DNA of 64,000 bases from a virus (lineage: Duplodnaviria; Heunggongvirae; Uroviricota; Caudoviricetes; Demerecviridae). The position numbers and the translations under genes were made by a program. Below, one piece after another: positions 4,520-33,851 of this stretch. The notes under the pieces are model-generated. The model made no database searches. It saw only the letters and a program-made list of their open reading frames with translations, and was not told the origin of the DNA. The stretch's first letter is position 1. Each line of letters opens with the position of its first letter. The stretch covers positions 7,652-71,651 of the IMG/VR virus record IMGVR_UViG_2974655058_000001; one strand, 5' to 3'.

Positions 4520-4704
4520 TACTTATTCTCCAGTTTGTCTAGCAGTTTATGAGCTGCTAGATTATATTGTTTAAGCTCACGGTTAAGGATTTGGTTCTCA
4601 CACTTTAACTCTAAATTCTTATTATTAAGAATATTGCAGATTAGTAGAAGTGCTAGTATAACTAGTAGCGAACCTACAAGCATTAAAAGAAAAAGAGTTT
4701 CCAT
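4519..4704 (-). CDS. small membrane protein with one TM and a coiled coil
   Basis: N-terminal TM helix followed by a heptad-like segment. Confidence 0.5.
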   Translation of the reverse strand: METLFLLMLVGSLLVILALLLICNILNNKNLELKCENQILNRELKQYNLAAHKLLDKLENK

Positions 4705-4937
4705 TATTTAATTCCCATGTAACGTTTGAGATACGTGATGAAGTCTTCTGTTGTATGTTCTATGCTACCCTGAACCACAAACAACTTTAAAGCCTCACGC
4801 TGTAATTTAAGAGCAGCTAACTCACCACGTAATTTTGTTAGATCTTCCGCTAGTTCTCTAGCTCTGCGCATAATAGCAAATGATACTAATGTTACAATAA
4901 ATAACATAACTGCTAAAATAATTACTATGATTTCCAT
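4704..4937 (-). CDS. small membrane protein with one TM and a coiled coil
   Basis: TM helix then RARELAEDLTKLRGELAALKLQ coiled coil. Confidence 0.5.
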   Translation of the reverse strand: MEIIVIILAVMLFIVTLVSFAIMRRARELAEDLTKLRGELAALKLQREALKLFVVQGSIEHTTEDFITYLKRYMGIK

Positions 4938-6893: not shown

Positions 6894-6992
6894 TGTTTTT
6901 AAGTCTCCTTATTACTTTGGCCTGCTCCACAATAATGAAAACTGCGAGCACTAATAGTGCTATTAGTCCCGCAGTAACTGGTACTAGATCAA

Positions 6993-7319
6993 TCATGGGA
7001 GACGCCATACATAATTAGCTGTCTGTAGAACTTCGGAAACACCATCATGTTGCATCACTACAGACGTTGGAGAGTAACTATTCGCCAGTTCTGTACGAAC
7101 CATCTCACGTTCTTCTCCAGTTTCAATATTTTTAACAACCACCTTCATTTTGAGAGGTGTCAGTTCAGAGAGCGGTTTCCAAGAGTCCTCAATTTCAATT
7201 CCTACCTTTTTCTCGATTACCATGAGAACTTCTAGTGTGTCATCTGGAATACTAATATTATTATTTACAAACTGTAACAGCTCATGCAAAGTATTTAATT
7301 CGTTAAAATTAAGTTTCAT
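6993..7319 (-). CDS. hypothetical protein
   Basis: ORF track; start trimmed to the MKLNF ATG just after the upstream stop. Confidence 0.5.
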   Translation of the reverse strand: MKLNFNELNTLHELLQFVNNNISIPDDTLEVLMVIEKKVGIEIEDSWKPLSELTPLKMKVVVKNIETGEEREMVRTELANSYSPTSVVMQHDGVSEVLQTANYVWRLP

Positions 7320-7554: not shown

Positions 7555-7832
7555 TTTTTAATCTCCGTGATTATCTGTGTACGCATTACTTTAGCGGGTA
7601 ATTTATTATTACCAATTATTGCCTCGATATTATTTAATTTTTCTTTAAGAATATCTGAGCGTCTTTGTGCTAATTCAATATCTTGCTCTTGCTCTAGCAA
7701 GCGGTGGTGTAGCCCATCATTAGTAATGAGCATACTTTCCATGTTTTTCCGTGCATTCACAATCCCAATAACTCCACCAATCGCTACTAGCGTAGTAAGA
7801 ATTAGTAACCCAATAAGAATTTCTATAATCAT
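7551..7832 (-). CDS. membrane protein (TM plus coiled coil)
   Basis: N-terminal TM helix. Confidence 0.5.
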   Translation of the reverse strand: MIIEILIGLLILTTLVAIGGVIGIVNARKNMESMLITNDGLHHRLLEQEQDIELAQRRSDILKEKLNNIEAIIGNNKLPAKVMRTQIITEIKK

Positions 7833-22857: not shown

Positions 22858-22947
22858 TGGAGGAAGGTAATGGAGTCGAACCATCACCGTATCACTACAG
22901 CGGGCTAGTTTTCAAGACTAGTTGCGTACCACTACGCCCTACCTTCC
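22858..22947 (-). tRNA. tRNA-Ser (TGA), class II
   Basis: 90 nt, long variable arm, loop CTTGAAA. Confidence 0.7.
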
Positions 22948-23045: not shown

Positions 23046-23157
23046 AATAATAAGATGATGCCTCTATCACACCAGGCAGTTACGCCTCGCTGGGATTCGA
23101 ACCCATTAAAACAGCTCAACCGAGATAGTAGGTTTAATTTACTCTGACCATCAAATT
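23046..23157 (-). ncRNA. tRNA-derived element: canonical T-arm (ATGGGTTCGAATCCCAG) without a matching acceptor stem
   Basis: T-loop motif at 23088-23104 flanked by tRNA genes; no 7-bp acceptor pairing found. Confidence 0.3.
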
Positions 23158-23234
23158 TGGTGCGTGACAAGGGATTCGAACCCTCAAAACCCGACTTCTA
23201 AGGACGGTATGTATGCCAATTCCATCAATCACGC
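23158..23234 (-). tRNA. tRNA with anticodon TAG (a Leu anticodon) but class-I architecture
   Basis: 77 nt, 5-nt variable loop, loop CTTAGAA, discriminator A73. Confidence 0.55.
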
Positions 23235-23239
23235 GTATT

Positions 23240-23318
23240 TGGTGGAGGATAACGAATTCGAATCGTTCTGATGTCCTCGGTGCAAGCGAGGTGTCCACCC
23301 CTAGCAGACCCATCCCCC
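23240..23318 (-). tRNA. tRNA-Ala (TGC)
   Basis: anticodon stem CCTCG/CGAGG, loop CTTGCAC. Confidence 0.7.
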
Positions 23319-23691
23319 AAATTCTTTAGTTTACTAAGGCTATTGGCTCGGCGTAACTACAGCACCTTCACTTCGAGCGGAAGGAACCGCGTCATCTCGC
23401 AAACCCGATACACTATTCAGTTGCCACTGAATCTAGTGGACTAATCTAGAACCTCTCCCAAATAGTAGGGATCGTGCTTTTTGGCAGCCAGTCCTAGGTC
23501 GAGCTAATACCTTAGTGAACTATGATGAGGATTTCTCCTCATCAATTTATATAAATATTATATCAAGAAATTAAGCATTAAGCAACTGCGTTTTTGAAAT
23601 TTCTTGGACTTGGTACTCGGTGATAGAATCTAACTATCGCTACCGCCGTGTAAAGACGGGGTTCTCTCATTAAACTAACCGAGCAAAAATT

Positions 23692-23769
23692 TGGTGGATT
23701 GCCTGGGATTCGAACCCAGAACTGACGGATTAAAGGTCCGCTACTCTTATCCAGTTGAGCTAGCAATCC
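23692..23769 (-). tRNA. tRNA-Lys (TTT), tentative
   Basis: acceptor GGATTGC/GCAATCC; loop CCTTTAA (position 33 is unusual). Confidence 0.55.
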
Positions 23770-24233
23770 AAATTCTCTACTAATAGTTTAAAAGCGTCTA
23801 ACAGAGGTACTTCAAACCATTCTCCTGATACTTTGTAGTCTTTCAGAAGATTATGTAATGCTTTTTCAGTTCTTCTCTTGTCCGAGGAGAATCTAAAATG
23901 GTATAACTTGTAATCACGATAGGGCGAATATGTTTGATAACTAGACAGTCTTTCATTTACGTCTACTGTCATACCTATCTTATAGAGTCCAGGCCACGCT
24001 GGGTTACCTATTACATATACAAACCCTTCTGTTATAGGGATTTTATGCTCCCTTTTATACTTCAGTAAGTTTAACGCTGCCATTCTATAACAGAACTTAA
24101 ACTCTGAGGATTTTAGTTTACCTTCTTTACCGGATATTTCGTTATACTTCTCCATATACCTACGTATTAAGGAGTCAGTAATAGTAAAGTGCTTTGGAAG
24201 ATCCAGGGCTTGAAGTACACGGTTAATAAGCAT
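23760..24233 (-). CDS. T5orf172 / GIY-YIG-like domain protein
   Basis: GLYKIGMT...NERL...YHFRF motif block of the T5orf172 domain; the gene end overlaps the tRNA-Lys gene by a few nt. Confidence 0.6.
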   Translation of the reverse strand: MLINRVLQALDLPKHFTITDSLIRRYMEKYNEISGKEGKLKSSEFKFCYRMAALNLLKYKREHKIPITEGFVYVIGNPAWPGLYKIGMTVDVNERLSSYQTYSPYRDYKLYHFRFSSDKRRTEKALHNLLKDYKVSGEWFEVPLLDAFKLLVENLDC

Positions 24234-24407
24234 AAACTTCCTTAATAGAATGGACTTTTAAGTAAGAATGATTAATCCCAAACTCCGCCATTACTTCTTT
24301 TTCATCTTTTCCATAATGTGCAAGTAAGGATCTTGAGGTATTATTACCTAAACGTTTGTCACTTACTACTAATCGAAATACTTTCATTTCGAAATCCTCT
24401 ATTAAAA

Positions 24408-24485
24408 TGGAAGCGGGTGCAGGAATCGAACCTACCTCTTTCTAGCTTATGAGACTAGCGATCTCTACCAGAGATCTAACCCGCA
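24408..24485 (-). tRNA. tRNA (anticodon CAT) with a 1:72 mismatch (initiator-like feature)
   Basis: loop CTCATAA; T1 is unpaired with T72. Confidence 0.6.
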
Positions 24486-24491
24486 ATTGTT

Positions 24492-24569
24492 TGGTCTCCG
24501 TGGGAGGATTTGAACCCCCGACCCTATCGCCCCAAACGAAACGCTCTGGCCAAACTGAGCTACACGGAG
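24492..24569 (-). tRNA. tRNA-Pro (TGG)
   Basis: acceptor CTCCGTG/CACGGAG, loop TTTGGGG. Confidence 0.65.
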
Positions 24570-24942
24570 AATATTATTTCTTCAACCACAACAAAGATAA
24601 GCCCAGCATACTAAAGCCGCTAACTAATCCGATACATTTTTCTTCTATAGTAAAAGTATCTAGATTAAATGCTGTTATAGCTATGGGCATACACCATAAT
24701 GCCATAAAAACTTGAGCTATCTTGTGTTTCATTTTGCTTTCCTTCTCTTCACTTTATAAAATATATTATAAAGATAATTAAGCTGAATAGCAAATGAATT
24801 TTTAATAAATTTACTTATTGTGTAGGCTACCTGGAGGCTACCAACCCCACGGCTGACAAAGAAGTTTGCGAGACCTCTCTTAAATGTCAGAATAGACCCA
24901 CCGATCTATCGGAACCTACATAATAAGTAGACTTTATAGTGT

Positions 24943-25063
24943 CATTCTAGACAGGACTCGAACCTGTTATCACTTGTGCGGACTTACGAGAACCATTCTT
25001 TCACTCGAATCGAACGAGCTTCTGCCCTCGCCAAGCTGGTTTCCCCATCAACCACGCTAGAAT
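24943..25063 (-). ncRNA. 121-nt tRNA-like stable RNA candidate (perfect ATTCTAG/CTAGAAT termini, two T-arm-like hairpins)
   Basis: termini pair over 7 bp like an acceptor stem; internal T-arms ACAGGTTCGAGTCCTGT and GCTCGTTCGATTCGAGT; too long and irregular for a tRNA. Confidence 0.4.
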
Positions 25064-25185
25064 GTTTGATTGTTTTCAGTGCAAGAGTCCGAGTCTTGGA
25101 CACGACCGCTTCGCAAGTACATAGGCAGCTTATCATGAGTCAGCACTTCCGAATTGCTAGCTCCGTGTTCTGCACTGAAATTCTG

Positions 25186-25542
25186 TTAGTTTAACCGTAA
25201 AGTATTATCTACTTCACCATTAATTGTTCGGCAATCCTCTGGGATTGCTGGGGTGGCCTTGTATTCCCACCACTCAGCACCATCATATTCCCCACGTTCT
25301 AGCCAAGTTCCATCGGCAAACCATACATTACCATAAAGTAATTGTCCACCGTATCCAGAATCATACTCAAAGTCTAGATTATTAAGAAAATCCTCAATAT
25401 CTTCTTCTGTATAGCCTAAAGGTAATACCCAGACTTTTTTATCCCCATAATACCCAAATTCTATTTTAATACACTTAACTTCAGAATTAGTATTTTTTAA
25501 GGCAAGTAACAACTCTTCTTTAGCATTACGCATATTACGCAT
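25186..25542 (-). CDS. hypothetical protein
   Basis: ORF track. Confidence 0.5.
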   Translation of the reverse strand: MRNMRNAKEELLLALKNTNSEVKCIKIEFGYYGDKKVWVLPLGYTEEDIEDFLNNLDFEYDSGYGGQLLYGNVWFADGTWLERGEYDGAEWWEYKATPAIPEDCRTINGEVDNTLRLN

Positions 25543-25567
25543 AGTATATTCTCATACTGAATTAATT

Positions 25568-25644
25568 TGGCGCGACCGATGGGATTTGAACCCACATTCT
25601 CTCCCGTGACAGGGGAGTACCATTACCAAGCCAGCCCCGGTCGC
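25568..25644 (-). tRNA. tRNA-Asp (GTC)
   Basis: anticodon stem CTCCC/GGGAG, loop CTGTCAC. Confidence 0.75.
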
Positions 25645-25653
25645 ATGATCTGT

Positions 25654-25839
25654 TTATTCAGCTTTGAGTTTTTCAATAGCTGCATTAAGTTCTTTAAGAA
25701 ACTCTTTTCGTACATTAAGACGATTGAGACTTACTAGTATATCATGTTTAAGTTCTTCTATGTATTTCTTCTCAACTTCAATATTGTTGATAGTGCTATC
25801 ACGATGAACTTCTAGTTGCGCAATCACATTCTTGGACAT
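25654..25839 (-). CDS. small coiled-coil protein
   Basis: ORF track. Confidence 0.45.
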   Translation of the reverse strand: MSKNVIAQLEVHRDSTINNIEVEKKYIEELKHDILVSLNRLNVRKEFLKELNAAIEKLKAE

Positions 25840-25941
25840 GCTTGTTTCCTCAGTTATTAATGAAAATGGTATCTGTGGCTGAATTCGATGTCAGCAATGA
25901 TAGCTGGTTGGCTACCGGTTTACTTAACTCTACACAGAATT

Positions 25942-26024
25942 TGGCGGGCCGTGTAGGATTCGAACCTACGTTGTCTTTCGACACGGATTAACAATCCGCC
26001 GCCAAACCGCTTGGCTAACGACCC
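25942..26024 (-). tRNA. tRNA with anticodon GTT (an Asn anticodon) and a long class-II-like variable arm
   Basis: 83 nt; loop TTGTTAA; variable hairpin GTC-GAAA-GAC. Confidence 0.5.
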
Positions 26025-26033
26025 TAAGTTTGT

Positions 26034-26174
26034 GTTGCTGACTAGGATTTTCACCTAGACGGAGTTAGCACCGTAGCGTGTAGCGGCATACCTCTCCAAA
26101 CCGTGCCTCATCTTTCAATTACGGAGACAGTGTTCCTACGCGTGCCTGAATTGATTTAACAATTCTTTCAGCAA
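26034..26174 (-). ncRNA. 141-nt structured RNA candidate (perfect TTGCTGA/TCAGCAA termini, non-canonical T-arm-like hairpin CTAGGTGAAAATCCTAG)
   Basis: complementary 7-nt termini plus internal hairpins; sits between tRNA genes. Confidence 0.35.
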
Positions 26175-26176
26175 AT

Positions 26177-26253
26177 TGGACGACCGCATGAGATTTGAAC
26201 TCACATAAAAAGGATTTGCAATCCTTCGCCTAAGCCATTCAGCCAACGGTCGG
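26177..26253 (-). tRNA. tRNA-Cys (GCA)
   Basis: anticodon stem AAGGA/TCCTT, loop TTGCAAA. Confidence 0.75.
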
Positions 26254-26430
26254 TTTATCTTGTTTTTCGAGATCTTCAAATTCTAGATCATTGAAGTTCC
26301 CTAGAGTACGGGTATAGAACCCATCCCCTGAGTCATAGCCTGATTTACCACAATCACACATTTTAAATTCACGAAGATGTGTGAAAATATGCTCAGAACC
26401 ACAACACTTAAATTTAACTAACTTTCTCAT
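26239..26430 (-). CDS. small Cys-rich Zn-binding-like protein
   Basis: CCGSEH...CDCG; the gene end overlaps the tRNA 5' region by a few nt. Confidence 0.4.
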   Translation of the reverse strand: MRKLVKFKCCGSEHIFTHLREFKMCDCGKSGYDSGDGFYTRTLGNFNDLEFEDLEKQDKPTVG

Positions 26431-26669
26431 TTAACACGCTCCGGTAGATCTTCTAGTTTATATTCAGTAGCCACATTAGCAGCATCTAAAAGTAATCCCA
26501 TGTGTTTAAGGATTTTAGTGATAGATTCGCCTTCGGCTTCTTCTACGAAAGAACGTAGATGAACAAAGTCAATTCCACCGTCCATACCAGAGAAAATATT
26601 TAGTAAGCGAAGCATTACCAGCTTACGTTCATTCAATTCTTGTTCTGTCATGTTGCTTCTCCAGTTCAA
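26427..26669 (-). CDS. hypothetical protein
   Basis: ORF track plus a promoter module upstream. Confidence 0.5.
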   Translation of the reverse strand: MNWRSNMTEQELNERKLVMLRLLNIFSGMDGGIDFVHLRSFVEEAEGESITKILKHMGLLLDAANVATEYKLEDLPERVK

Positions 26670-26701
26670 TTTATGTAATAATTATATAGAACTTTAAGCA
26701 G

Positions 26702-26989
26702 TTAAGCAACCACATTTTTTAAAAATTTGATGCCTTTCTTTTTCTTCTTATATTTCCACGTTAAGGGATTCTGTCGATTATGAACGCTTGAGATCTTCGT
26801 CTCGTCAAAGTTCTTCAATATCATGTAATCACAAGATAATTGTTCTAATGGAATGTGATCACCGTCAAAAGCGTATACATAAGGCTGTTGACTAGCACGA
26901 TAATGATAGACTTTGTTAATTCTACGTTTCAGCGACTTATCCGCGCAGTAAATAAAGAAGTTTTCAGGATGCATCAGCAGCTCCTTCAA
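26702..26989 (-). CDS. hypothetical protein
   Basis: ORF track. Confidence 0.5.
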   Translation of the reverse strand: MKELLMHPENFFIYCADKSLKRRINKVYHYRASQQPYVYAFDGDHIPLEQLSCDYMILKNFDETKISSVHNRQNPLTWKYKKKKKGIKFLKNVVA

Positions 26990-26991
26990 TT

Positions 26992-27066
26992 TGGTGCACC
27001 CTGTTCGTATCGAACGAACCTCTCAAGCTCTTCAGGCAAGCGCTAATCCATCTCAGCTAAAGGTGC
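26992..27066 (-). tRNA. tRNA-Phe (GAA), tentative
   Basis: T-arm GTTCGTTCGATACGAAC, loop CTGAAGA, anticodon stem with 2 mismatches. Confidence 0.5.
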
Positions 27067-27072
27067 AAATTT

Positions 27073-27143
27073 TGGCAGGGGTAAAGGTATTCGAAACCTT
27101 TTCATGGGTTTTGGAGGCCCATTTGCAACCTATGCGTACCCCA
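27073..27143 (-). tRNA. tRNA-Trp (CCA), short 71 nt
   Basis: loop CTCCAAA; T-arm AAGGTTTCGAATACCTT. Confidence 0.55.
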
Positions 27144-27152
27144 ATTATTAAT

Positions 27153-27227
27153 TGGCACACCCAACGAGGATCGAACTCGTGTTCCCACTGTGAAAGAGTG
27201 GTGTCCTAACCGCTAGACGATAGGTGC
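27153..27227 (-). tRNA. tRNA-Glu (TTC)
   Basis: anticodon stem CCACT/AGTGG, loop CTTTCAC. Confidence 0.75.
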
Positions 27228-27234
27228 ATTAAAT

Positions 27235-27322
27235 TGGTGGGGAAAGATGGAGTCGAACCACCCGAGTCGCAATGACAACTGATTTACAGTCAGCTCTGCT
27301 ACCACTTACAGAATATTTCCCC
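27235..27322 (-). tRNA. tRNA-Tyr (GTA), class II
   Basis: 88 nt, long variable arm, loop CTGTAAA. Confidence 0.7.
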
Positions 27323-27452
27323 ATATTTAGAAGTATTCAAAAATTCTCATTTAAACACTTTTAAATATGTTTCCAAATTAGATAAATATTATATCAAGTT
27401 TTATAGTATTGGGCAAGTCAAATTTTAAAGAACTTGCCCAATGCTGTATTAG

Positions 27453-27728
27453 TTAGTCGAACTTAGGAGTGACAGTTAAGGAGAACGGAAGTTCAAAAAC
27501 TTCTTCACCCTCATCACTAACAGTGATTACACGACCTTTAAGTTCAGACATTGAAATATCAATGTCAGCTTTTGCATCTGGAGCCATGCCAGCTTCAACA
27601 CATTTAGCTTTAATTTCCGGCAGAAGTTCTACATCGTAGAAATAAAGCCACTCAATCTCACCTTCCCAGCCTTCCCAGGATTTACAGATTGCACTTTCAA
27701 TACCAGTTGCTATAACACGATTTTGCAT
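27453..27728 (-). CDS. hypothetical protein
   Basis: ORF track plus a promoter module. Confidence 0.5.
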   Translation of the reverse strand: MQNRVIATGIESAICKSWEGWEGEIEWLYFYDVELLPEIKAKCVEAGMAPDAKADIDISMSELKGRVITVSDEGEEVFELPFSLTVTPKFD

Positions 27729-27818
27729 TCGTTAACTCCTTCATCAATTTATACAACTATTATATCAGAAATTTAAAGCAAAAGGCAAGTACATTTTTAA
27801 AAATTCTGTTCGGAGGAG

Positions 27819-28025
27819 CTAAACTCCAGATTCTTCGGCCAAGTCTAGACTAATAAGAGTTATAGCCATAATTGCCGCACCGTGTTCTTTTTCTCCGGTG
27901 TTTTTAGCAGAGTCTATAATATCCTTAATCTGTTCGTAATAACTTTTTACTTCTTGTTCAATGCCTGCCTCGGCTATCATGCCTTTAGTCATGAGTCGTT
28001 GCATGGTAATTTCAGGATTAGCCAT
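27819..28025 (-). CDS. hypothetical small protein
   Basis: ORF track. Confidence 0.45.
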   Translation of the reverse strand: MANPEITMQRLMTKGMIAEAGIEQEVKSYYEQIKDIIDSAKNTGEKEHGAAIMAITLISLDLAEESGV

Positions 28026-28200
28026 GTTGTTTCTCCAGTTTCATTTTTAATAGTTTACAAATGAAATCAACGTCTTCATCTGTGCCTAAGTCTCTATCCT
28101 CAAGGTTTGCCTTGAAGTTTTTCGTCAACTCCATAAGGATGACTTCCCTAGAACGACGTGTTGGTGGCGGAGGAGGTCTATACATCTTAATTCCTTAATT

Positions 28201-28277
28201 TGGTAGGGGTGGTGGGATTCGAACCCACAAAACCTGAATTTTAAGTCCAGTACCTATGCCAATTCGATTACACCCCC
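28201..28277 (-). tRNA. tRNA with anticodon TAA (a Leu anticodon) but class-I architecture
   Basis: 77 nt, 5-nt variable loop, loop CTTAAAA, A73. Confidence 0.55.
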
Positions 28278-28378
28278 ATGTAATCAGTTTATTAGTTGAT
28301 ACATATTATAGCCTAGAGAAAACCCTACTACTAATCCTACGAACCAACCAATATAATAATCTTTTAGTTTCACGGGTA

Positions 28379-28783: not shown

Positions 28784-28861
28784 TGGTGGCTCCCCGAGGA
28801 TTCGAACCTACGTACCTTCCGGTTATGAGCCGGGTGCTCATACCATATGAGCTTGAGAACC
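28784..28861 (-). tRNA. tRNA (anticodon CAT), third CAT species
   Basis: acceptor GGTTCTC/GGGAGCC with G-U pairs, loop CTCATAA. Confidence 0.6.
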
Positions 28862-28867
28862 AGAATT

Positions 28868-28956
28868 TGGCGGAAGAAGTGGGAATCGAACCCGCAAGGC
28901 TATATTTCAAACCGACAGATTAGCAATCTGCTGCAATACCGTTATGCTATTCTTCC
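28868..28956 (-). tRNA. tRNA-Ser (GCT), class II
   Basis: 89 nt, loop TTGCTAA. Confidence 0.7.
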
Positions 28957-33075: not shown

Positions 33076-33147
33076 TACCGACCGTAGGATTCGAACCTAC
33101 ATCTTCCACCAGTTACGGCTTGATAATACCAATTATACTAGGACGGC
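33076..33147 (-). pseudogene. degenerate tRNA-like sequence (canonical T-arm and acceptor-like termini, no anticodon arm, no CCA)
   Basis: GTAGGTTCGAATCCTAC T-arm; GCCGTCC/GGTCGGT termini with one mismatch. Confidence 0.35.
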
Positions 33148-33407: not shown

Positions 33408-33851
33408 TTAATTAAATTCGCCAGCAATCTGAGCAGCAGTACCACCATCATAACGCCCAGGAAATTCTTCCTTAATCGCTTTCATCAGCATACCTTTTGT
33501 AATTCCAGGGTTTAGCTTAACTAATTCTGCAAAGTATTTACGAATCTCAGTATCAGATAACTGAGGAGGCAGATACTCCTGCAACCACTTATTTAGAATG
33601 TATTCATACTGAGCGGACTGCAAGCTATAACTATCAAGATCTTGACCATGAAGTTTAGCTTTCATCTGGTTAATGCTTTTTAGTTGAGCTTTGAGATAAG
33701 ACACAAATTGTTCAGAAGTGACGAAATCTTTATCAATACGCTGAAGATCCCCGATTATGGTCTGATAGCTTTTAGCGACTTCTTTATCAGAACCATTAAA
33801 CTTAGAATCCTGCAAAGCTCTACGCAAAACATCTAAAATATTCTCTTCCAT
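33408..33851 (-). CDS. GatB/YqeY-domain protein
   Basis: YqeY-like helical domain, C-terminal EEFPGRYDGGTAAQIAGE. Confidence 0.65.
   Translation of the reverse strand: MEENILDVLRRALQDSKFNGSDKEVAKSYQTIIGDLQRIDKDFVTSEQFVSYLKAQLKSINQMKAKLHGQDLDSYSLQSAQYEYILNKWLQEYLPPQLSDTEIRKYFAELVKLNPGITKGMLMKAIKEEFPGRYDGGTAAQIAGEFN

Follow-up and report, generated by a model that had tools for sequence, protein, structure and literature searches.

The transfer RNA (tRNA) gene clusters of bacteriophages T5 (NC_005859; our locus L181) and BF23 (locus L001) were studied decades ago and are close relatives of the cluster considered here, which lies on the minus strand of a 64,000-nucleotide (nt) stretch of viral DNA (IMG/VR record IMGVR_UViG_2974655058_000001, positions 7,652 to 71,651; hereafter the window). 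In this cluster the structural class of three genes has really switched: two leucine tRNA genes, Leu(UAG) and Leu(UAA), have a short variable loop (class I) in place of the long variable arm of class II, and the asparagine tRNA gene, Asn(GUU), has a long arm. Bases 23100-28350 of the window are 100% identical to Salmonella phage VSe12 (MN022787; locus L002; Demerecviridae, Tequintavirus), a T5-like phage in whose record the genes are already annotated, as Leu(UAG) is in BF23. The BF23 and T5 clusters are like that of VSe12 in gene order, flanks and small open reading frames (ORFs), and the BF23 Leu(UAG) gene is identical; they differ from it in the alleles found at the switched loci, as detailed below.

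Leucine tRNAs without a long arm have been described in two other settings. Engineered Escherichia coli tRNA-Leu from which the arm was removed is charged by leucyl-tRNA synthetase (LeuRS) provided that A73 and the tertiary core are intact (PMC9976931), as they are in the phage genes, but these molecules were laboratory constructs, whereas the phage form is natural, conserved and in the majority among the sampled phage Leu tRNAs listed. Animal mitochondrial tRNA-Leu is also naturally arm-less and is recognised via A73 and A14, and animal mitochondria have been named as the sole exception to the long-arm rule for tRNA-Leu (PMC9976931); they differ in being another genetic system, with a dedicated synthetase and degenerate tRNA cores, whereas the phage genes have canonical D and T loops and are predicted to be served by a bacterial cytosolic LeuRS. 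The tRNA-Tyr of phage SP15 is likewise a T5-like phage tRNA with a variable region unlike that of the host, and that region decides the outcome of the Retron-Eco7 defence (PMC12673091), but it stays within its own class, since tRNA-Tyr is class II in bacteria, and the Leu and Asn alleles are as yet linked to no defence system. Finally, bacterial tRNA arrays of 32-36 genes in Micromonospora/Verrucosispora hold long-arm Asn(GUU) and class I Leu tRNAs together, as the phage does, and so do arrays in Saprospiraceae, Flavobacteriales and Bacteriovoracales assemblies, but these arrays are chromosomal or carried by mobile elements, and their function is uncertain. Structural class goes unmentioned in the literature that we found on tRNA arrays, and we found no paper on arm-less phage tRNA-Leu or long-arm tRNA-Asn in a search outside which the T5 tRNA papers of the 1980s fell; the BF23 cloverleaf was likely described earlier, in this older T5 literature.

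ARAGORN called 22 tRNA genes in the window, on the minus strand, and the Rfam tRNA model RF00005 (gathering score 29 bits) was used as a second, independent tRNA finder. Both concur with the initial annotation on the position, anticodon and class of the three genes (Table 1), each of which shows the cloverleaf of RF00005, with an acceptor stem of 7 base pairs, anticodon and T stems of 5 base pairs each, an anticodon loop of 7 nt and a T loop of the UUCRANY type, at a score above gathering, and the anticodon loops in the Rfam alignments, CUUAGAA for Leu(UAG), CUUAAAA for Leu(UAA) and UUGUUAA for Asn, agree with those called by ARAGORN. The alternative raised at that stage, that the loops had been mis-parsed, is refuted, because the two tRNA finders, the covariance-model alignments and the covariation agree on both anticodon and class. 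Alternative loop registers are ruled out by the agreement of ARAGORN with Rfam and by the 74-nt Leu body, which leaves no room for a long arm. The neighbouring Tyr(GUA) gene, put forward as a normal class II comparator, is indeed class II, although ARAGORN ends it one nucleotide earlier than the 27322 first given. We think it probable that all three genes encode working elongator tRNAs whose class has changed and whose amino-acid identity has not; the class swap is real, conserved and under-described, the decoding most probably conventional.

Table 1. The three class-switched tRNA genes and their class II comparators, in window coordinates (nt, nucleotides; bp, base pairs).
Gene	Position	Strand	Details
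tRNA-Leu(UAG)	23158..23234	-	77 nt including encoded CCA; ARAGORN; Rfam 47.5 bits
tRNA-Leu(UAA)	28201..28277	-	77 nt including encoded CCA; ARAGORN; Rfam 57.4 bits
tRNA-Asn(GUU)	25942..26024	-	83 nt including encoded CCA, G73; ARAGORN; Rfam 58.4 bits
tRNA-Tyr(GUA), canonical class II comparator	27235..27321	-	A73; ARAGORN; Rfam 33.0 bits
tRNA-Ser(UGA), class II comparator	22858..22947	-	ARAGORN; 19-nt variable arm, 6-bp stem
tRNA-Ser(GCU), class II comparator	28868..28956	-	G73; ARAGORN; 19-nt variable arm, 4-bp stem

Two leucine tRNA genes without the long arm

As read from the sequence, the variable loop is GUUUU (5 nt) in each Leu gene; both have A73 and an encoded CCA, and neither has the class II variable region of at least 10 nt forming a stem-loop. 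A second class II feature, a D stem of 3 base pairs (bp) with a non-Watson-Crick 13:22, is present in both, G13 facing A22. The D arms read AUG-G-AAUUGGCAU-A-CAU in Leu(UAG) and AUC-G-AAUUGGCAU-A-GGU in Leu(UAA). The two genes have the D loop AAUUGGCAU, the variable loop and the T-arm core GGGUUCGAAUCCC in common and cross-match at 81.8% over positions 10-64, and Leu(UAA) is likely a paralogue of Leu(UAG).

As host comparators we used leuW(UAG), leuZ(UAA) and leuQPV(CAG) of E. coli K-12, whose D arms read GCG-A-AAUUGGUAG-A-CGC (leuW), GUG-G-AAUCGGUAG-A-CAC (leuZ) and GCG-G-AAUUGGUAG-A-CGC (leuQ). Phage and host Leu tRNAs are alike in the 3-bp D stem, the AAUYGG-N-A-N loop, A14, A15, the A at 20a, U48 and A73. 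The base at position 13, opposite A22, is a purine throughout, namely A in leuW and G in leuZ, leuQ and both phage genes, and the G18G19 register and D-loop length are equal in phage (AAUUGGCAU-A) and host (AAUUGGUAG-A). The final base of GUUUU is U48, which gives an A15:U48 Levitt pair, and the T loop of the Leu genes is UUCGAAU.

These are the positions on which recognition by the host enzyme depends: E. coli LeuRS requires A73, A15-U48, G18G19 and A20a, the long arm and the anticodon are not LeuRS determinants, and arm-less tRNA-Leu variants are still active (PMC9976931). Both phage genes have A73 and the whole tertiary-core set, namely A14, A15:U48, G18G19 four nt after position 13, A20a and a suitable T loop, by which we mean one able to form G18:U55, G19:C56 and U54:A58. 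It is most likely, judging from these determinants, that both are charged with leucine by the host LeuRS, which would read A73 and the D-loop/T-loop tertiary core rather than the anticodon or a long arm; the genes retain every one of these LeuRS elements and lack the arm alone. The minimum-free-energy folds of the Leu genes are not cloverleaves, the cloverleaf lying 1.5 and 3.8 kcal/mol higher, because their D stems are weak 3-bp helices, and single-sequence folding was judged uninformative for these genes on that account. G3:U70, a determinant of alanine identity, is absent from both.

The choice of isoacceptors fits the codon supply, given the heavy use of CUA and UUA in this AT-rich phage: in the window ORFs they account for 21% and 25% of Leu codons, respectively. 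Both codons are minor in enterobacteria, where the host decodes them with minor tRNAs, and the two phage genes would decode CUA/CUG and UUA/UUG. That Leu(UAG) matures in E. coli, is charged there and works on the ribosome follows from BF23, whose tRNAL1 or tRNA-Leu1(UAG) (AJ604530) is identical in sequence to the window gene and, according to its depositors' note, becomes an effective amber suppressor when its anticodon is changed to CUA. Sequences at least 99% identical to the window genes are found in 131 phage records for Leu(UAG) and 293 for Leu(UAA).

To place the two genes among other viral leucine tRNAs, we called unique Leu-anticodon tRNAs with ARAGORN in loci L008-L151, retrieved by two pattern scans of IMG/VR contigs; the counts below refer to the matches listed and come from a biased census, since the scans demanded fixed anticodon-loop and T-arm sequences and the sequences are mutually related. 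The 158 unique Leu-anticodon tRNAs include 94 with a variable loop of at most 6 nt and 62 with one of at least 10 nt, and for anticodons outside the scan selection the count is 26 class I against 12 class II. A73 is present in 93/94 class I and 62/62 class II Leu tRNAs, and a 3-bp D stem with a non-Watson-Crick 13:22 in 83 of the 94 class I sequences. As a control, every parsed tRNA was scored for a 3-bp D stem with unpaired 13:22 plus A15:U48. This Leu-type core is nearly isotype-specific among class I tRNAs: it occurs in 62/94 class I Leu (66%) and 59/63 class II Leu tRNAs, but in only 19/444 (4%) class I tRNAs of every other isotype. All 40 Ser tRNAs (40/40) belong to class II, as do 15/17 Tyr tRNAs, so that the arm is shed almost only by the isotype whose synthetase reportedly needs none; loss is common only in Leu, never seen in Ser and found in 2/17 Tyr, in line with reported synthetase requirements. 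Annotated relatives of the class I Leu(UAG) gene occur in Felixounavirus phages, a Cronobacter phage, Klebsiella phage KB57, Vibrio phage Thalassa and a Xanthomonas phage.

An asparagine tRNA gene with a long arm

The variable region of the window Asn gene is 13 nt long, GUC-GAAA-GAC-AAC, with a GUC/GAC stem, a GAAA loop and a 3-nt 3' tail, and this covarying 3-bp stem gives the gene the class II variable-region feature. Its D stem has 4 bp (GCCA/UGGC), while those of the sister alleles in CHI14, 1-23 and Roth77 have 3 bp. At the minimum free energy the gene folds into a cloverleaf of five arms, one of them the extra hairpin (z = -3.1); the Rfam alignment handles this hairpin as an insertion.

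Covariation supports the fold. In an alignment of 22 sequences, made up of 20 long-arm Asn tRNAs and two neighbouring tRNAs with an ACU anticodon, pairing in the four standard helices reaches 96-100%, and compensatory changes are abundant there. The variable helix scored in fixed columns is only 53% paired across the same sequences, because stem register and offset differ among lineages, and we replaced this scoring with per-sequence folds and an alignment of one five-member lineage. In that lineage, five phages sharing a GGGU.GU acceptor stem, the variable helix is 100% paired and three of its four pairs have changed on both sides, giving the versions GUC/GAC, GUUC/GAAC, AUCC/GGAU and GUCA/UGAC. 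A broader covariance-model search returned 283 ordinary tRNAs and was discarded.

The Asn gene matches 638 phage records. Carriers of the long-arm form are T5-like phages, as well as, on checking, the T4-like Serratia phage CHI14 (Straboviridae) and a Novosibvirus of Proteus, and further include large (~165-172 kilobase (kb)) Klebsiella, Enterobacter and Cronobacter phages. Among the viral contig matches listed there are 21 unique long-arm GUU tRNAs, whose variable regions span 12-17 nt and which all (21/21) have G73, and the long-arm type makes up about 4/20 of the Asn genes in the listed loci fetched by the Leu pattern, a sample that is unbiased for Asn. A scan of 185,579 species genomes gave 25 matches, of which the tRNA-like ones lie mostly in multi-tRNA arrays; the array hosts are Micromonospora/Verrucosispora, Saprospiraceae, Flavobacteriales, Bacteriovoracales and Bacilli assemblies, and several of the arrays also hold class I Leu. 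Neither the Leu(UAG) nor the Asn allele was matched by blastn in 5,426 complete E. coli genomes.

Recruitment of a class II body to the Asn anticodon is probable, given that there are sister alleles with Ser-like or Leu-like class II D arms: some have D arms identical or 75% similar to those of phage tRNA-Ser, with a full-length identity to phage tRNA-Ser of 62-71%, and another long-arm Asn subfamily has a Leu-type D arm. The extra hairpin would then probably have been inherited from a class II tRNA body, or acquired by recombination with one. For the window gene the nearest isotypes are Ser (0.62), Gln (0.61) and Tyr (0.60), with none clearly closest. A single origin of the long-arm Asn tRNAs was rejected, the module-wise nearest neighbours being Ser-like, Leu-like or Tyr-like bodies according to lineage.

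Long arms have reportedly been combined with anticodons other than those of Ser, Leu and Tyr in the allo-tRNAs of Mukai and colleagues (Nucleic Acids Research, 2017), which are said to have an 8/4 or 9/3 architecture and Ser or Leu identity elements. The phage Asn gene differs from these in its standard 7/5 architecture, with a 7-bp acceptor stem and a 5-bp T stem that are fully paired and covary, and in its AsnRS-type anticodon and G73 (AsnRS, asparaginyl-tRNA synthetase).

Other unusual long-arm forms turned up in the scanned loci. In two viral contigs a class II tRNA with an ACU anticodon adjoins the long-arm Asn gene (L014, 1677-1763; L026, 422-508); its anticodon is unusual, ARAGORN labels it Ser, it scores 65-66 bits on the long-arm Asn model and it may be a close paralogue of its Asn neighbour. 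Long variable arms were also seen in other isotypes within phage or mobile-element tRNA arrays (viral loci L008-L151, genome loci L158 and L167), among them Thr(UGU) with 15-17-nt arms, Met, Ile, Gln and Trp, as well as Lys(UUU), 88-90 nt long, and Glu, 89 nt long. A part of these may be introns or parsing artefacts.

The comparison with published T5 tRNAs that the initial annotation had proposed could be made, and it brings out alleles that differ from those of the window. T5 has an 85-nt class II Leu(UAG) at 4625-4709, flanked by the Ser genes and tRNA-Ala; its Asn gene, at 6953-7030, is class I and 78 nt long, and Leu(UAA) is missing from T5. BF23 combines a class I Leu(UAG) with a class I, that is canonical, Asn, and VSe12 combines a class I Leu(UAG) with the long-arm Asn. 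Where VSe12 has Leu(UAA), the HNH homing endonuclease gene hegA sits in T5 and BF23, and the VSe12 Asn gene is unrelated in sequence to that of T5 and BF23, yet is followed by the same 3' flank. At an identity of at least 95%, the phage database holds 162 class I against 52 class II records of Leu(UAG) and 270 long-arm against 134 class I records of Asn(GUU), so that the non-canonical alleles are the commoner ones among T5-like phages. Both non-canonical kinds are cassette alleles that T5-like phages exchange for the canonical ones. Interspersed with the tRNA genes are those of the HNH homing endonucleases (hegA, hegC and hegD), which may drive the exchange. Just downstream of tRNA-Asn, window positions 25860-25941 (minus strand) correspond to a flank common to BF23 and T5, where it is annotated as 'RNA3', a tRNA-like RNA.

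Amino-acid identity, rival explanations and host defences

In bacteria, asparagine identity is set by the anticodon together with G73, and a different tRNA can be given this identity by transplantation (PMC9976931). According to the T5 annotation, the class I tRNA-Asn of T5 is not convertible into a suppressor, as fits an AsnRS that depends on the anticodon. The window Asn gene has the full reported AsnRS set (G34, U35, U36 and G73). Because GUU and G73 are both present and the gene sits at the T5 Asn locus, where it is the sole phage Asn gene in VSe12, we predict that the long-arm tRNA is quite probably charged with asparagine.

A reason for changing shape while keeping identity is suggested by defence systems that target tRNAs. 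Retron-Eco7 PtuAB cuts E. coli tRNA-Tyr inside the variable loop, the tRNA-Tyr of T5-like phage SP15 escapes it, and deleting or shortening the longer variable loop of the SP15 tRNA restores defence (PMC12673091); SP15 also has the long-arm Asn allele, at 96.4% identity. The PARIS nuclease AriB, whose reported targets are Thr(UGU), Asn(GUU) and Lys(UUU), cuts host tRNA-Asn at U36AAUC/C41 (the stroke marking the cut), and the Asn allele of T5 contributes to the rescue of infection (PMC12409363). With Retron-Eco7 as the relevant precedent, it is most plausible that the remodelled shapes have been favoured as poorer substrates for host defence nucleases, the tRNAs staying usable by synthetases and ribosomes while being less cleavable. 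Neutral drift under relaxed synthetase constraints is the fallback, and would be sufficient to explain the Leu genes. We also considered a link to PARIS through phage Bas34 and rejected it: Bas34 is SelmaRatti, its Asn tRNA is an ordinary 77-nt class I molecule, and the remark on Bas34 in the PARIS paper therefore does not concern the long-arm allele.

A more far-reaching proposal would be that phage and mobile-element arrays break the class I/II rule systematically, with Leu shedding an arm for which bacterial LeuRS has no need and class II bodies of Ser-, Tyr- or Leu-like type being recruited to Asn and, sporadically, to Thr, Lys and others. We regard this as rather unlikely, in particular with the strongest forms that it could take. 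In one, the long-arm GUU tRNA would have a dual identity, being Asn plus some Ser or Tyr. In the other, the arm would be a dedicated shield against a defence nuclease that holds host tRNA-Asn by its anticodon stem and variable pocket, and variable-arm remodelling would then be a general form of counter-defence beside anticodon-loop mutation.

A true identity switch or dual identity, with the GUU tRNA charged partly or wholly by seryl-tRNA synthetase (SerRS) or tyrosyl-tRNA synthetase (TyrRS), or with the Leu-anticodon tRNAs carrying an amino acid other than leucine, is improbable, for the long-arm tRNA as for the set as a whole. In such a case Ser or Tyr would enter at Asn codons, and a single change would be enough to produce the GUU anticodon, C35U from Ser(GCU) or A36U from Tyr(GUA). 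SerRS ignores the anticodon and reads mainly the variable arm, on which serine identity is reported chiefly to rest, aided by G73 and G1-C72/G2-C71 (PMC9976931); a serine route would run through the extra arm together with G73, G1-C72, G2-C71 and C11-G24, and the Ser-like D arms of the sister alleles and their sequence identity to phage tRNA-Ser point the same way. Class II discriminators, however, include the number of unpaired arm bases (PMC9976931), and on geometry alone the window Asn arm, with 3 bp and three unpaired 3' nt, does not have the size and orientation of the Ser type. Among the matches listed, phage Ser arms have a stem of 4-7 bp in 36/38 cases and 0-2 unpaired 3' nt in 36/38, whereas long-arm Asn arms have a stem of 2-4 bp in 20/21, 3-4 unpaired 3' nt in 18/21 and 0-1 unpaired nt on the 5' side in 18/21. 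Stem length and the count of unpaired 3' nt separate Asn from Ser arms better than arm length, which was dropped as a discriminator against SerRS since phage Ser arms reach down to 13 nt.

The window arm is instead of Tyr type: the arms of E. coli tyrT and of VSe12 tRNA-Tyr, whose variable region reads U-GUC-AUUGC-GAC-UCG, have 3 bp, GUC/GAC as in the Asn arm, and three unpaired 3' nt. This geometry, with G34 and U35, is what would make a tyrosine route conceivable, but TyrRS requires A73 and G73 is unfavourable (PMC9976931), and of the TyrRS set (A73, and U35 within GUA) the Asn gene has G73 and U36 instead of A73 and A36. Mistranslation would moreover be costly, as Asn codons make up 5.3% of phage codons, yet the allele is carried by hundreds of phages. 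For the Leu genes, the isotype-specific core and A73 have been kept and G3:U70 is absent, a comparison that did not systematically extend to the determinants of other A73-dependent class I synthetases. The idea, raised in the initial annotation, of identity-switched tRNAs that bias decoding is thus not supported for present-day charging, the Leu and Asn determinants being kept, but it survives in an evolutionary form, in that structural class has been switched.

A role mainly as decoys or inhibitors of tRNA-targeting nucleases, or as tRNA-like regulators rather than adaptors, is an explanation that we likewise hold to be improbable. The PARIS paper raises the possibility of direct AriB inhibition by over-expressed viral tRNAs (PMC12409363), the variable loop of a T5-like tRNA-Tyr is required against Retron-Eco7 (PMC12673091), and T5-like clusters contain the stable tRNA-like RNAs RNA1, RNA2 and RNA3, of unknown function. 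Against such a role, the whole cloverleaf covaries, acceptor and anticodon stems included; conservation extends to the anticodon, the discriminator and the encoded CCA; the BF23 twin of the Leu gene, annotated as a suppressor, works on the ribosome; and the alleles take the place of canonical decoders of the same codons. A decoy function could add to decoding, yet is not needed to explain the data.

That the genes are decaying pseudogenes or annotation artefacts is very unlikely: the VSe12 GenBank record marks both Leu genes pseudo, one record labels the Leu(UAG) allele tRNA-OTHER and the Leu minimum-free-energy folds are not cloverleaves, but the genes score 47-58 bits against the Rfam threshold of 29, have the near-identical copies counted above, show compensatory changes across lineages and include one whose BF23 twin is annotated as a functional suppressor, and the flags most likely stem from isotype models in which a long arm is presupposed. 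In VSe12 they are set on Leu-TAG, Val-TAC, Met-CAT, Tyr-GTA and Leu-TAA, all of them conserved and above the Rfam threshold.

Several points weigh against our preferred reading of working tRNAs with changed class and unchanged identity, beyond the pseudo flags and the bias of the viral census already described. The Asn gene, which has GGG.../...CCC-G at its ends, carries elements reported for E. coli SerRS, namely G73, G1-C72, G2-C71 and C11-G24, and some sampled phage Ser arms are only 13-14 nt long, so that arm length by itself does not speak against charging by SerRS. The BF23 suppressor note does not name the amino acid inserted. The VSe12 Asn gene keeps the host AriB site sequence U36AAUC/C41, where the T5 allele reads UAAGUU; any protection of the VSe12 tRNA would therefore come from shape and not from sequence, and escape from PARIS at the level of the cleavage-site sequence is unsupported. 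The defence-evasion rationale as such is one that we infer.

The pattern of arm loss and gain offers natural test cases for recognition by LeuRS, SerRS, TyrRS and AsnRS. The class I/II rule fails for Leu in the sampled phage arrays, and one Asn family has gained a long arm. Automatic annotation mislabels such genes as pseudo or tRNA-OTHER, with the result that phage tRNA repertoires can be undercounted, and codon-compensation analyses with them. T5-like tRNAs have already been shown to defeat PARIS, Retron-Eco7 and PrrC, with the variable loop decisive in one case, and the natural alleles offer ready-made comparisons for asking if arm remodelling serves counter-defence, at the Leu locus between T5 on one side and VSe12 and BF23 on the other, and at the Asn locus between VSe12 and the other two phages.

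Neighbouring elements in the tRNA region

Several further elements lie on the minus strand around the three genes. ARAGORN calls a 79-nt tRNA-Ala(UGC) at window positions 23240-23318, with G3:U70, an odd D hairpin in which 7 bp close a loop of 3 nt, and a variable loop of 7 nt; it falls under the Rfam gathering score and is absent from the VSe12 GenBank feature table, and the Ala site in T5 and BF23 holds different, canonical Ala alleles. At 28787-28861 there is a tRNA found by Rfam only (40.3 bits), for which relaxed ARAGORN settings give a CAU anticodon and an encoded CCA. It adjoins Ser(GCU), in the position of T5 tRNA-Ile2(CAU), and is annotated as tRNA-Met in VSe12.

T5 and BF23 also annotate the stable RNAs RNA1, RNA2, RNA2H, RNAIII and RNAIV within the cluster. 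A weak tRNA-like element detected by Rfam only (35.5 bits) at 33076-33147 has a good T arm, but its anticodon arm is degenerate and it lacks a CCA. This element is some 0.5 kb away from tRNA-Arg, roughly where T5 annotates the stable RNA rnaX, a match by position only. Close by, at 33408-33851, a 147-amino-acid ORF has a YqeY-like domain, the tRNA-binding C-terminal domain of GatB, at 25.4 bits against a Pfam cut-off of 27. This ORF may encode a phage tRNA-binding factor beside the tRNA cluster, and its apparent T5 counterpart, again by position only, is T5.081, annotated as 'tRNA amidotransferase'.

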